NCBI GenBank assembly: GCA_964016885.1
Contig: OZ024741.1
Span: 399,342,001-399,406,000, forward strand
Origin: Eledone cirrhosa
Lineage: Eukaryota
Direction: 5' to 3'
DNA: 64,000 nucleotides
Below, one piece after another: positions 1,003-61,352 of the stretch; the first letter of the stretch is position 1; each line of letters begins with the position of its first letter. Below the pieces are notes generated by a model. That model ran no database searches and was not told the DNA's origin. It saw nothing but the letters and a program-made list of their open reading frames with translations. The translations under genes and the position numbers were made by a program.

Positions 1003-1200
1003 ATGAATCCCTGGTTCAATCGGGAGGTGTAACCACTGTAAGGTACTCAATTAGTGGAGTGTAATCATCATGTTTAATACTGAAATGGGGTCTACAGGAA
1101 TAGAACTGTTTCATTCAAAAGAAATAATTATGAAATCTTGATGATTTCTTTTGAATGAAACAGTTGTAGTCCCGCAGAAGCAATTTCTATATTAAACATG
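1003..1200. mobile_element. Family B fold-back element with two degenerate hammerheads
   Basis: Homologous to 20415-20603; contains CTACAGGAATAGAACTGTTTCATTC and inverted TTGATGATTTCTTTTGAATGAAACAGTTGTAG; cores are mutated. Confidence 0.7.
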
Positions 1201-1267
1201 ATATATATATATATATATATATATACAATATTAAATAAATGGAAAACTATATTTATAAAACCATATC

Positions 1268-1333
1268 TATTTCATTATATATATTTCGGGGATATCATAT
1301 TAACAATATGCTATGCCTTCATCAGACAAAATA
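1268..1333 (-). ncRNA. Type I hammerhead ribozyme, family A
   Basis: Reverse-complement copy of 1548-1613. Confidence 0.75.
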
Positions 1334-1547
1334 CAATATAAACAGTTTTATAGATAAATATATTCGACATACCGTAATAAACATCAACTTCATTTGAAGA
1401 GGTTTACTCTAGCAGTAAACCTAGAGGTTACCGTAATAAACATCAACTTCATTTGAAGAGGTTTACTGCTAGAGTAAACCTCTTCAAATGAAGTTGATGT
1501 TTATTACGGTATGTCGAATATATTTATCTATAAAACTGTTTATATTG

Positions 1548-1613
1548 TATTTTGTCTGATGAAGGCATAGCATATTATTAATATGATATCCCCGAAATAT
1601 ATATAATGAAATA
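1548..1613 (+). ncRNA. Type I hammerhead ribozyme, family A
   Basis: TATTTTGT CTGATGA AGGCATAGCATAT-tatta-ATATGATATCCCC GAAA TATATA TA ATGAAATA. Stem I pairs with 2 G-U; the base of stem II is imperfect. Confidence 0.75.
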
Positions 1614-2296
1614 GATATGGTTTTATAAATATAGTTTTCCATTTATTTAATATTGTAAATATACTCCAAGTATTTGTCGAGTGCTTTTATATCAGTTATA
1701 AATATTTACTAGTTGTAACCCAACAATTTTAAATATAACTTTACATATATATATATATATATATATATATATAATAAGGGTTGACGGAACCAGCATATTT
1801 ATCAATGCCAGTACCGGTTGTATCTCAGCCCACTCAATGGGCAATGTAAGATACATTACCAGAGTATACACATAGTTATTTGCCTCAACACAATACACGT
1901 AAAAAAAAAAGAAAAAAAAAAATATATATATATGTGTGTGTGTGTGTGTAAATGAAGTAATTCCGTCGGAAAAGTCCAGGAAAATCCAAATTCAATAAAC
2001 AGACCAGGATTTTTTCATTCTGATGATTGAAAGCAACAGCAACATATTTTGCTTTTAAGAAACCACTGGTAAATGGAATAATTGCCTTATGTTGTTTATT
2101 ACATAACTATATATATATATATATATATATATATATATATATATATATATATATATATATATATATATGTCTATATATATATATATATATGTATATATAT
2201 ATATATATATATATATATATATATATATATATATATATATATATATGTATATATATATATATATATACATATATATATATATATATATATATATAT

Positions 2297-56741: not shown

Positions 56742-56880
56742 AGAAGAAGAAGAAGAAGAAGAAGAAGAAGAAGAAGAAGAAGAAGAAGAAGAAGAAGAAG
56801 AAGAAGAAGAAGAAGAAGAAGAAGAAGAAGAAGAAGAAGAAGAAGAAGAAGAAGAAGAAGAAGAAGAAGAAGACGACGAC
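56742..56880. repeat. (GAA)n microsatellite ending in (GAC)3
   Basis: Read directly. Confidence 0.95.
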
Positions 56881-57935
56881 AGTTTTACCAGCTTGTTCTT
56901 CTATCGAAGATACCGTTTACAACGAACAGCAAGAGTAAAATGTTAAGGCACCATTAAAAACTCATAAATACAAACTTCTTTTGACGAATCTTTCTTTTGT
57001 TACATTCTAATCAGGCGAGTCTCGTACAGCTACGGTAGGAATCCTTCCTATCTAGCCATGGCCTGGAAAAAATGTTAGAATTTGGATTATTCTGGCACCT
57101 TCTAACATACCCGTATCTAGTAACACGATCGATGGTTCTTATCAAGTAAGTTTTTTATATTTTTCTACAGTCGTCTTTTACCTGACACTCTCATATTGGT
57201 TTACTCTATTGTCTTGGCGCTCTCTCTGGTTCTTTATTTTGCAACTTCCATGCTATTATAGTTGAGCAAAGAACATGTCACACACCTACTCTCTCTCTAC
57301 ATACACATATATATATATTGTATTATATTTGGCAGTATCGGTAGAGGGTCGGACGCCATTGCTTTGCAGCAAAGAGTTACGGCCCTTTATGGTCCGAGTT
57401 CAAATCCCGCCGAGGTTAACTTTGCATTTCATCCTTACGGGGTCGATAAAATAAAGTACCAGTAATGCACTGGGATAATTGCTGGCCTTGTGCCAAAAGT
57501 AGAAACAATTATATTTATATACATTTGTCTTGACAATTTCTTACCATTGAATTACTGTGTTACTGCTCCTAATGAAAATTCTTAAATTTACTGTTAGTAG
57601 AGCTGACTTTAGATTCTAACAGTGACTATTTCTAACAATTTGTCGACCTATACAGTTGTCAGACAATATACGTTTACGTATTAATCAACATTTTAATATC
57701 TATATATTGTTTTACTATGAAGAATAGTTTAATATGTTGGGTTTATAAACCGTGGAGAAACAAGTCATCTATGCCCAACTTCGACTATTTTTCATAGTCA
57801 AATATCGTTGATACCTCTAAATTACAAATCCAAAATATATAATATATATATATTATATATATACTATCCAGGGATAACTTGAACCGTTAAGGTATATTCT
57901 CATTGGTTATGTCAAAATTTATAAAACACACTTCG

Positions 57936-57996
57936 TATTTTATCTGATGATAGCGTACCAAAATTTTGGTACCCTTGAAATATATATAATAGAATA
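57936..57996 (+). ncRNA. Type I hammerhead ribozyme, family A
   Basis: TATTTTAT CTGATGA TAGCGTACCAA-aatt-TTGGTACCCTT GAAA TATATA TA ATAGAATA. Confidence 0.82.
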
Positions 57997-59439
57997 AATA
58001 TGGTTTTATAAATATAGTTTCCATTTATTTAATATCATATATAGCTTTCTAACGTATGTTATTACTCTAAGGTGACACAACCTTTGCGAGTGCTTTGCTG
58101 CACATTCCTGATTGTATATTGTTAGTTTGGCCACAGCCAAAACTTCGATTTTACTGAACTTCCATTTGTATATATATATATATATATATATATATATATA
58201 TATATATATATATATATGTGTGTGTGTGTGTATGTGTGTGTGTGTGTGTGTGTAAGGTTTGTGTGTGGTGTGTGTGTGTATGGTTTGTGTAGTCCAGAAA
58301 TAGCTGTCGAAATGGCTTGAGTCAGAACCCCGACAGCAGAGCTCAAGCCGTTTCGACAGCTATTTCTGGACTCAATATATATATATATATAATATAATAT
58401 ATAATATATATTTATATATATATCATATAAATATTATATGCATCTATGCGTATGTGTTTATATATATATATATATATATATATATATATATATATATATA
58501 TATATATATATATATATATACATAAATATATAATATATACATATATAATATATATGTATTTATATATATAATATAATATAAATGTATTTATATAAGTATA
58601 TTTATAGCGACACACATATGTCCAAAGCAGCTCTCTCATATCCCAATCAAGGTAGCTGTAAATATGTAAATATATACCAGGGAAGAAGAATGAACCTCTT
58701 CTCATCTTAACGCCGTTATAAACAGCGGCATAACTGTAAAAATACCGAGTGTTGATTTAGCATAAATTACTGTATTCAGTTCTTCCTGCTCGGCCAACAA
58801 TAAACTCCACTTAACATTTCTACTTGTGTCTCACATTCTTCGAAAATGGCTGCTACCCACGTGGTACATGTATGAAATCATAGTACGGTTCATTTCCATG
58901 GTGAATACCACAATTATGTATTGAGTACTTTTACTTAAAAAACAGTGCACTATATATGCCTCTCTATATGTCTGTATGTTTCTCTCTCTCTCTCTCCCTC
59001 TCTCACTTCCCCCTCCCTCTCTCACTCACTCCCTCTCTCTCTCTCTCCCTCTCTCACTTCCCCCTCCCTCTCTCACTCACTCCCTCTCTCTCTCTTTCAT
59101 ATATACCTGTATATAGAGAAGGCGCCTGACTCGTTTGTTAGGGTGTTCGGCTCAGAATCGTAAGGTCGTGAGTTCGTTTTCTCACAGCACGTTGTGTCCT
59201 TGAGCAAGACACTTTATTTCACGTTGCTCCAGTCCACTCAGCTGGCAAATATGAGTTTTACCTGTAACTCGAAGAGCTAGTCTTGTCACAATCTGTATAA
59301 CGCTGAATCTCCCCGAGAACAACGTTATGGGTGCACCCGTCTATATGTATATAGATATATTGATATTATATATATATGTATATATATATATATATATATT
59401 GATATTATATATATATGTATATATATATATATATATATA

Positions 59440-61352
59440 AATATAGACATAGAATATTCGAAAATATTCTGTATGTTTATAATAAACATTTTGAAGACCT
59501 AATCGCTATAGAATAGAATACGTCACGTATTACAATTAGATTCTCGACAAAAGCAAGGGAAGTAAATCTACGCGTTTCATTCTTATTAGAAATCGTCAGG
59601 ACTACATATCCAGTGCTTTTATCGAGAATGACACAGCTAGAGACTTATAGAATACTTAGCTGTGTACAGGAACTGGTTTGAAAGAGCGGTTGCCGGTCCG
59701 GCAGAAATTAGAAATTGGAATAAATGCTCTGAAATAGCGATATATATGTGAATATAGACATAGAATATTCGAAAATATTCTGTATGTTTATAATAAACAT
59801 TTTGAAGACCTAATCGCTATAGAATAGAATACGTCACGTATTACAATTAGATTCTCGACAAAAGCAAGGGAAGTAAATCTACGCGTTTCATTCTTATTAG
59901 AAATCGTCAGGACTACATATCCAGTGCTTTTATCGAGAATGACACAGCTAGAGACTTATAGAATACTTAGCTGTGTACAGGAACTGGTTTGAAAGAGCGG
60001 TTGCCGGTCCGGCAATATTCTATGTCTATATTCTATGTCTATATTCTATGTCTATATTCTATGTCTATATTCACATATATATCGCTATTTCAGAGCATTT
60101 ATTCCAATTTCTAATTTCTGCCGGACCGGCAACCGCTCTTTCAAACCAGTTCCTGTACACAGCTAAGTATTCTATAAGTCTCTAGCTGTGTCATTCTCGA
60201 TAAAAGCACTGGATATGTAGTCCTGACGATTTCTAATAAGAATGAAACGCGTAGATTTACTTCCCTTGCTTTTGTCGAGAATCTAATTGTAATACGTGAC
60301 GTATTCTATTCTATAGCGATTAGGTCTTCAAAATGTTTATTATAAACATACAGAATATTTTCGAATATTCTATGTCTATATTCACATATATATCGCTATT
60401 TCAGAGCATTTATTCCAATTTCTAATTTCTGCCGGACCGGCAACCGCTCTTTCAAACCAGTTCCTGTACACAGCTAAGTATTCTATAAGTCTCTAGCTGT
60501 GTCATTCTCGATAAAAGCACTGGATATGTAGTCCTGACGATTTCTAATAAGAATGAAACGCGTAGATTTACTTCCCTTGCTTTTGTCGAGAATCTAATTG
60601 TAATACGTGACGTATTCTATTCTATAGCGATTAGGTCTTCAAAATGTTTATTATAAACATACAGAATATTTTCGAATATTCTATGTCTATATTCACATAT
60701 ATATCGCTATTTCAGAGCATTTATTCCAATTTCTAATTTCTGCCGGACCGGCAACCGCTCTTTCAAACCAGTTCCTGTACACAGCTAAGTATTCTATAAG
60801 TCTCTAGCTGTGTCATTCTCGATAAAAGCACTGGATATGTAGTCCTGACGATTTCTAATAAGAATGAAACGCGTAGATTTACTTCCCTTGCTTTTGTCGA
60901 GAATCTAATTGTAATACGTGACGTATTCTATTCTATAGCGATTAGGTCTTCAAAATGTTTATTATAAACATACAGAATATTTTCGAATATTCTATGTCTA
61001 TATTCACATATATATCGCTATTTCAGAGCATTTATTCCAATTTCTAATTTCTGCCGGACCGGCAACCGCTCTTTCAAACCAGTTCCTGTACACAGCTAAG
61101 TATTCTATAAGTCTCTAGCTGTGTCATTCTCGATAAAAGCACTGGATATGTAGTCCTGACGATTTCTAATAAGAATGAAACGCGTAGATTTACTTCCCTT
61201 GCTTTTGTCGAGAATCTAATTGTAATACGTGACGTATTCTATTCTATAGCGATTAGGTCTTCAAAATGTTTATTATAAACATACAGAATATTTTCGAATA
61301 TTCTATGTCTATATTCACATATATATCGCTATTTCAGAGCATTTATTCCAAT
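59440..61352. mobile_element. Retrozyme-like array 2: 311-bp unit, ~1.85 copies (HHR minus: 59562-59605, 59873-59916) then ~4.2 inverted copies (HHR plus: 60217-60260, 60528-60571, 60839-60882, 61150-61193), junction ~60014
   Basis: Same unit as array 1 with 4 visible differences; HHR GTAGTC CTGACGA TTTCT-aata-AGAAT GAAA CGCG TA GATTTAC. Confidence 0.9.

Follow-up and report, generated by a model that had tools for sequence, protein, structure and literature searches.

During twin priming of L1, both target ends prime, reverse transcription starts at poly(A), and the pieces of the insertion are non-overlapping parts of one RNA, with outward polarity and microhomology at the junction. Here, we analyzed outward-facing fold-back insertions that carry hammerhead ribozymes in the window, a 64,000-nt stretch, dense in (TA)n tracts, of the 3.0-Gb animal genome of Eledone cirrhosa (contig OZ024741.1, positions 399,342,001 to 399,406,000), and relate them to Penelope-like elements (PLEs) and retrozymes. 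These insertions share with L1 twin priming the outward polarity, the junction microhomology and, in the reading favored below, priming by both target ends. In contrast to L1, the same sequence usually appears twice: the arms overlap, each begins at one of two fixed sites, and (TA)n, not poly(A), lies at their ends.

Inverted PLE copies have been described as 'most frequently head-to-head' (PMC3846280); passages of PMC8557442 likewise place inverted 5'-truncated copies head-to-head and mention (TA)n targeting, and a passage of PMC8969392 repeats the description. In the sections of PMC3846280 and PMC8557442 that deal with endonuclease-containing (EN+) PLEs, the insertion unit comprises a head-to-head 5'-truncated inverted copy, partial tandems, a tail at one end and a terminal repeat containing a type I hammerhead, all of which were found here. 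That tail is called 'optional' or present 'often' and measures 30-40 bp, whereas in three of the five families described below (A, B and C) one tail of 35-95 nt was found per insertion in 85/88 loci (3 unresolved). A passage of PMC8557442 states that the origin of the tandem and inverted structures of PLEs was unresolved. According to passages of PMC11167929, an anole PLE in vitro cuts and extends both strands, starting at two adjacent RNA sites that bound the genomic tail; the reverse transcriptase (RT)/GIY-YIG protein was predicted to be a dimer, and hammerhead cleavage was not needed. A literature search, with most subscription papers, Repbase notes and supplements outside its scope, found no one-tail rule, arm-matched haplotypes, head-to-head retrozyme arrays or Hydra/Neptune contrast.

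Outward polarity of the fold-back insertions

The preliminary description of the window held that, in eight fold-back insertions, the hammerhead lies on the minus strand in the left arm and on the plus strand in the right arm. All eight loci proved to be inverted repeats, and homology to hammerhead-bearing seeds placed eight outward (minus/plus) and none inward, in agreement with that claim. Both arms contained a scorable type I hammerhead in five of the eight (loci 1225, 17566, 26118, 41630, and 59440). At locus 20415, a GAAA to CAAA change at 20573 in the right arm kept it from passing the descriptor; at locus 1003, the left arm ends before the CUGAUGA core and the right arm has UUGAUGA; and at locus 22200, the descriptor failed on both arms, with stem I broken. 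The mismatches between arms cited earlier exist, with positions shifted by one base (correctly 20573, 26674, and 41711-41712), and the preliminary description missed the tail that one arm carries; the family D locus reaches 27050. Because the loci fall into five families (A, 17566 and 59440; B, 1003 and 20415; C, 1225 and 22200; D, 26118; E, 41630), the uniform polarity does not represent eight independent trials.

In the window, 26 motifs fit the type I hammerhead descriptor, and a stricter version found 46 motifs in 664 kb compared with 0 in 30 shuffled loci. An Rfam scan of the whole window gave, among the 150 matches listed, no hammerhead and only chance microRNA-like matches, and no hammerhead in the window reached the Rfam gathering score. 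Scanned alone, the 310-nt family A unit matched Hammerhead_HH9 on the plus strand (E 0.026; 19 bits vs. a gathering score of 52), which lends weak support.

Polarity was then scored across the genome. Copies of the families were located by exact patterns, as a similarity search with the 310-nt unit skips common words. These patterns gave 5,507 A, 14,713 B, 2,179 C, and 437 D matches; the first 100 of each were listed, and the genome-wide counts rest on those. Among the matches listed, outward and inward opposite-strand neighbors occurred at 51:4 for A ends up to 20 kb apart, 8:1 for A motifs, 19:0 for B (up to 1 kb), 9:0 for C (up to 4 kb), and 8:1 for D (up to 5 kb), so that orientation is far from random, as the preliminary description had anticipated. 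A position-chosen sample of 600 kb (60 stretches of 10 kb, 52 scattered and 8 beside the window) gave 22:1, of which L061 and L079 were false on inspection, leaving 20 outward pairs. The inward pairs of A and D lay 1.2-4.2 kb apart, and the single inward pair of the 600 kb spans a TA tract separating two outward insertions. Inward cases are neighboring, separate insertions, and the polarity rule is real for the arms of one insertion. Outward polarity is thus real, strict and already described; its hosts here are new families of Hydra-like PLEs and retrozymes. The polarity itself follows from any two-ended priming.

Nearly all two-armed insertions have one tailed and one untailed end

The arms are unequal and not mirror images: the outer end of one arm carries an extension of 35-95 nt, hereafter the tail. 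Family A has two 3' ends, 35 nt apart. Patterns combining each end with (TA)n gave 649 and 647 forward matches (reverse counts were inflated by double listing), which implies approximately 1,300 A insertions. Within the first 152 Mb of C1, 51 outward pairs were formed by 73 tailed and 75 untailed A ends, and 44 ends had no partner. All 51 pairs joined a tailed to an untailed end; pairs of two tailed or two untailed ends were absent, though both would have been listed. Among 20 unpaired A ends that were fetched, 10 had the other kind of end in a variant of its sequence. The remaining 10 were single arms: 8 carried the untailed end (at one of these, a 9-nt remnant of the tailed kind persisted), 1 carried the tailed end, and 1 was interrupted by a gap in the assembly. 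Approximately 77% of A loci were palindromic. The excess of untailed arms among these singles (L042-L057; 8/10) hints that untailed priming comes first, in a small and ascertainment-biased sample.

The same rule was found in B and C and, with one exception, in D. In B, 20/20 fetched pairs consisted of a tailed and an untailed end, with one tail shortened (tail ~70 nt), and in C, 14/17 two-armed loci did so, the other 3 being unresolved (tail ~95 nt); among C singletons, 12/20 had no opposite arm within 1.1 kb. Six D loci fit the one-tail pattern, two were cut off, and one did not fit. (TA)n adjoined both A ends in 52/52 scored loci, the untailed A end falling on an internal TA run, and (TA)n was also joined to both A ends in raw short reads from outside the study (X23: 335 and 273 reads). 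The RNA 3' ends join the flanks, as the preliminary description held. In their tails, families B and C and two others (L083, L101, L119) share a short GAGT(A/G)C motif, located within a hairpin in C; it is a candidate binding or start signal, and the 35-nt A tail is without it.

Arm lengths, junctions, and haplotypes

The A junction set comprised 52 loci (39 of the 51 end pairs, 10 recovered loci, 1 neighbor, and 2 window loci), after removal of L001, which is complex with extra switches, and of one cut arm of L022. The tailed arm was the longer in 29/52 and the untailed arm in 23/52, with median lengths of 1,356 and 928 nt and a maximum of 8.5 kb. The 5' break phases of the two arms lay within 15 nt of each other in 7/52 loci vs. 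5.4 expected (p 0.29), and only 6-7/52 A arms of either kind stopped near the start site of the other arm. The 5' ends of A arms showed no accumulation at the site of hammerhead cleavage, with 2/104 lying within 5 nt of it. In L066, L072, L102, and L120, an arm consisting of the tail only faces a long untailed arm, and neither can be a copy of the other. In the untailed arm of L015, two variants recur every 7 units, suggesting post-insertion duplication or a multimeric template.

Inspection of the junctions, which had been proposed earlier, showed an excess of microhomology. Of 52 A junctions, 35 were gapless, and microhomology of at least 2 nt was found in 20/35 vs. 6.4 expected (0 of 200,000 simulations); the remaining 17 contained 1-272 extra bases, several of these insertions copied from nearby unit sequence. 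The longest, a foreign 272 nt (L016:1451-1722) that is 87% similar to L068:7843-8086, is possibly a captured RNA. Loops were 25 nt or shorter at the majority of junctions in B, C, E, and the other non-tandem families (loop values of L102, L116, L142, and L159 were excluded owing to algorithm failure). In C, single arms end in the same zone as paired arms, and the untailed arm reaches further 5' in most loci. Because single C arms stop in the zone of paired arms, the symmetry of C hairpins can be explained without fold-back.

Haplotypes were counted in 45 loci, as 7/52 A loci did not cover the marker block. The two arms carried the same haplotype in 44/45 loci, compared with 288/1980 (14.5%) of cross-locus pairs; nearly every unit of an arm carried the haplotype of that arm, and these 45 young loci comprised approximately 20 haplotype classes. 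Before restriction to recurrent markers, raw variants were shared in 67 cases and discordant in 20, with 28/36 loci concordant.

Coding parents and retrozymes

Between widely spaced outward arms, open reading frames (ORFs) in the hammerhead sense were found in C (L171, L172) and B (L212-L214); L171 and L212 have theirs in the tailed arm, and the other three (L172, L213, and L214) in the untailed arm. These coding parents bear out, for B and C, the earlier view of the insertions as PLE products. They encode a C-terminal GIY-YIG domain (Pfam E 0.0004-0.02, below the curated cut-off). Pfam gave no RT match on these ORFs; by eye, we take them to encode an RT from the motifs MGxxxS... and YRDD. The CxCX5C linker is present and the CCHH cysteine pair absent in both parents, and the B parent has CxxC and CxH close to the end of the endonuclease. 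B and C insert in (TA)n and have an inverted 5'-truncated copy and a tail at one end, as do EN+ PLEs. B and C are thus probably the ends of Hydra-like coding PLEs, a placement made by motifs rather than by a tree. In passages of PMC8557442, the Hydra clade of C-terminal EN+ PLEs likewise has the CxCX5C linker, no CCHH, and (TA)n, whereas hammerheads and inverted arms, both present in B and C, are not mentioned in its passages on Hydra.

Families A and D consist of non-coding tandem units with one type I hammerhead per unit, and the 310-nt A unit folds at z -5.9. As described in parts of PMC7229834 and bioRxiv 10.64898/2026.07.22.740005, animal non-long-terminal-repeat (non-LTR) retrozymes are low-GC non-coding tandem units with a minimal type I hammerhead, as are A and D; their unit range of 150-450 nt includes A, and D (~480 nt) lies slightly above it. 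The U.U at the stem II base of A is also found in axolotl HHR_Amex2. These features fit an assignment of A and D to the tandem non-LTR retrozymes of both papers. The main text of those papers, as far as its relevant parts go, is without inverted arrays, whereas about three quarters of A loci here are two head-to-head arrays. Insertion anatomy, and not sequence alone, links the retrozyme arrays of animals to the machinery by which PLEs integrate. A and B loci have 28 nt of the hammerhead core in common (86-93%), along with weak patches of 73-80% (E 0.003-0.008). The long D arrays L180 and L188 yielded no fitting ORF, and none of at least 130 aa, in the 20 kb fetched; at this site (60.57-60.61 Mb of the window's contig), the D array extends over at least 40 kb with higher-order repeats. 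A PLE beyond a 200-N gap in L044 was considered as the A parent and rejected, as no common terminal repeat was found in 30 loci; it became the single-arm control described below.

A Neptune-like PLE with single arms in (TA)n

The same genome contains a young coding PLE that is Neptune-like, having both the CX4CxxC linker and CCHH (L044, L151-L170); it is 4.75 kb long and C-rich and has at least 150 RT copies at 95-100% identity; Pfam gave no match on two L044 frames. Twenty copies were picked among the 150 top-scoring RT matches, in most cases because their frames were long. A (TA)n end was found in 18/20 and partial tandems in 5, and an inverted arm in 0/20. A degenerate hammerhead-like motif lies near the 3' end of this element.

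The preliminary description had proposed that the self-complementarity of (TA)n allows both ends to prime and makes palindromes the default for any TA-targeting element. The presence of (TA)n at both A ends and the position of the untailed A end on an internal TA run accord with this proposal. However, the Neptune-like PLE ends in (TA)n without inverted arms, so TA symmetry is not sufficient, and 10/20 unpaired A ends as well as the C singletons noted above had no opposite arm. Moreover, some described head-to-head PLE insertions have ordinary target duplications of 8-10 bp (PMC3846280). Target symmetry cannot yield asymmetric ends, and a purely symmetric target leaves the regular difference between the two ends unexplained. 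We regard (TA)n acting alone as very unlikely: as a sufficient cause it is refuted, although TA may still aid symmetric nicking.

Probable two-ended priming and its alternatives

Taken together, the anatomy of these sequences makes it probable that the palindromes are insertions of PLE ends and retrozymes into (TA)n, produced from one RNA by two-ended target-primed reverse transcription. That both ends of the target prime, as already suggested in the preliminary description, fits the data best in view of the microhomology, the largely independent arm lengths, and the tail-only arms. The RT/GIY-YIG protein would nick both strands of the TA tract. One 3'-OH would start cDNA synthesis at the upstream site, giving the untailed end, and the other would start 35-95 nt downstream, giving the tailed end. 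Both cDNAs would run towards the RNA 5' end, stop, and join 3' to 3' via 0-5 nt of microhomology or a short patch, followed by fill-in. Outward polarity would result because each cDNA starts at the flank with the 3' part of the RNA. With a linear template (B, C), the two cDNAs would end close to one shared stop zone and yield near-symmetric hairpins, whereas with retrozyme RNA in circular or multimeric form (A, D) the two would extend over different numbers of units, up to 27; where the second priming fails, a single arm would remain. The data fit two separately primed cDNAs on one template, and the choices between one RNA and two of one source, and between a circle and a linear multimer, are ones that we infer. 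In a more specific version, which is possible but which we hold only tentatively, the Hydra-type PLE protein is an asymmetric dimer on a single RNA, in which one subunit must initiate at the upstream site and its partner at the tail, each serving one target end. On circular retrozyme RNA, this would amount to double rolling-circle reverse transcription writing two head-to-head arrays, and the mode would be clade-specific, the Neptune-like element being single-armed in the same (TA)n targets.

Several observations weigh against two-ended priming on one RNA. In the passages concerned, PMC11167929 found no difference in start site between strands, and because of this lack of strand bias, it does not predict the one-tail rule. 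The arm lengths of A are weakly correlated (Spearman 0.28, p 0.048), and the D locus L183 pairs an untailed end with an end at an internal TA tract. Two RNAs from a single active source locus, or gene conversion acting between the arms, would likewise give both arms one haplotype, and L052 is mosaic, with 110G in 2/6 tailed and 7/7 untailed units. The junctions of non-tandem families are mostly near-symmetric hairpins, as snap-back also yields. Finally, no coding parent was found for A or D, in a search that did not include E.

Under the snap-back (self-priming) model, the second arm is copied from the first after a cDNA, or an antisense RNA (PMC3846280), has folded back on itself. This model, published for rotifer PLEs, accounts directly for the common haplotype and agrees with the short loops of most non-tandem junctions. 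However, either arm of A may be the longer (29:23), and break phases are no closer than chance. Copying of a tailed first strand cannot give tail-only arms or further-reaching untailed C arms, and single C arms share the stop zone of paired arms. The published self-priming model is thus contradicted for the tandem family A and for the tail-only loci, and as a general account we consider it unlikely. Alternatively, two-ended priming could use two RNAs, both transcribed from the only source locus active in a given cell, and the protein would set the site of each end. The same polarity, microhomology, and independent lengths would result, strand displacement would be unnecessary, and L052, being mosaic, shows that an insertion can draw on more than one template. 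With the approximately 20 haplotype classes of the young A loci, though, this would need one-at-a-time expression to give 44/45 matches, and it seems to us an improbable account.

An assembly or library fold-back artefact, or post-insertion rearrangement, would be compatible with the 100% identity of young A arms, and palindromes are hard to assemble. No read run spans a window junction, and reads on A and D pool many copies, with joints that lack direction and are silent on polarity. Nevertheless, the palindromes end at two fixed and different element ends, the flanks show no inverted similarity in 49/52 loci, and old loci have diverged arms. In data from outside, raw reads join (TA)n to both A ends, and three libraries share one opposite-strand joint (98, 110, and 133 reads, one start each). 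An artefact or later rearrangement is therefore extremely unlikely. The approximately 1,300 young A insertions, with fixed ends and haplotype markers, and the intact-looking B coding parents make this dataset valuable: they yield sharp predictions, namely a single tail for each event, matched arms, and independent lengths, for testing in the in vitro PLE assay already available.

Features of the window

Coordinates of the fold-backs are given in Table 1. The C fold-back at 1225 has a 59-nt duplication at its junction. In the D fold-back, the arms overlap by 7 nt, the tail is ~56 nt, and the cores lie at 26448 and 26706. The left arm of the E fold-back is ~60 nt longer than the right, a putative tail recognized by inspection of a single copy. 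The two A arms that meet at 60014/60015 have four private variants in common.

Table 1. Hammerhead-associated fold-back insertions in the window.
Feature	Position	Strand	Details
Family B fold-back, old	1005..1200		Arms ~80% alike, hammerhead incomplete; tailed arm minus 1005-~1125, untailed plus ~1144-1200
Family C fold-back	1225..1744		Untailed arm minus from 1225, core 1325; tailed arm plus to 1744, core 1556, tail ~95 nt
Family A tailed arm	17565..18737	-	3.8 units of 310 nt, four hammerheads; 35-nt tail against (TA)n
Family A untailed arm	18738..19674	+	3.0 units, three hammerheads; junction 18737/18738 blunt
Family B fold-back, putative end piece of Hydra-like PLE	20415..20607		Tailed minus 20415-20546, 2-nt loop, untailed plus 20549-20607
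Family C fold-back, putative end piece of Hydra-like PLE	22201..22647		Untailed minus 22201-22383 (includes 8-nt loop), tailed plus 22384-22647
Family D fold-back	26138..27050		Tandem unit ~470-490 nt; untailed minus 26138-26546, tailed plus 26540-27050
Family E fold-back	41570..41775		Cores 41690 (minus) and 41703 (plus), 2-nt loop
Family A untailed arm	59440..60014	-	1.9 units of 311 nt
Family A tailed arm	60015..61354	+	4.2 units; first a 13-nt unit fragment x4.5

Further fold-backs without a clearly scored hammerhead were found at 94-510, 531-702, 4681-5867, 6029-7164, 14383-14575, 53702-53886, and 61515-61591. Several of them have one extended arm, as in the eight loci, and the one at 94-510, with a TC/TA microsatellite in its center, may be tail-to-tail. 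The window also contains a broken long interspersed nuclear element (LINE) at 7298-11214, with Pfam matches to an APE endonuclease, RT, and zf-RVT, and a second APE-type LINE remnant at ~2950-4680. Very long minisatellites occupy 29100-37610, 42687-49814, and 54799-56221, with periods of 18/33, 16, and 29 bp, respectively.

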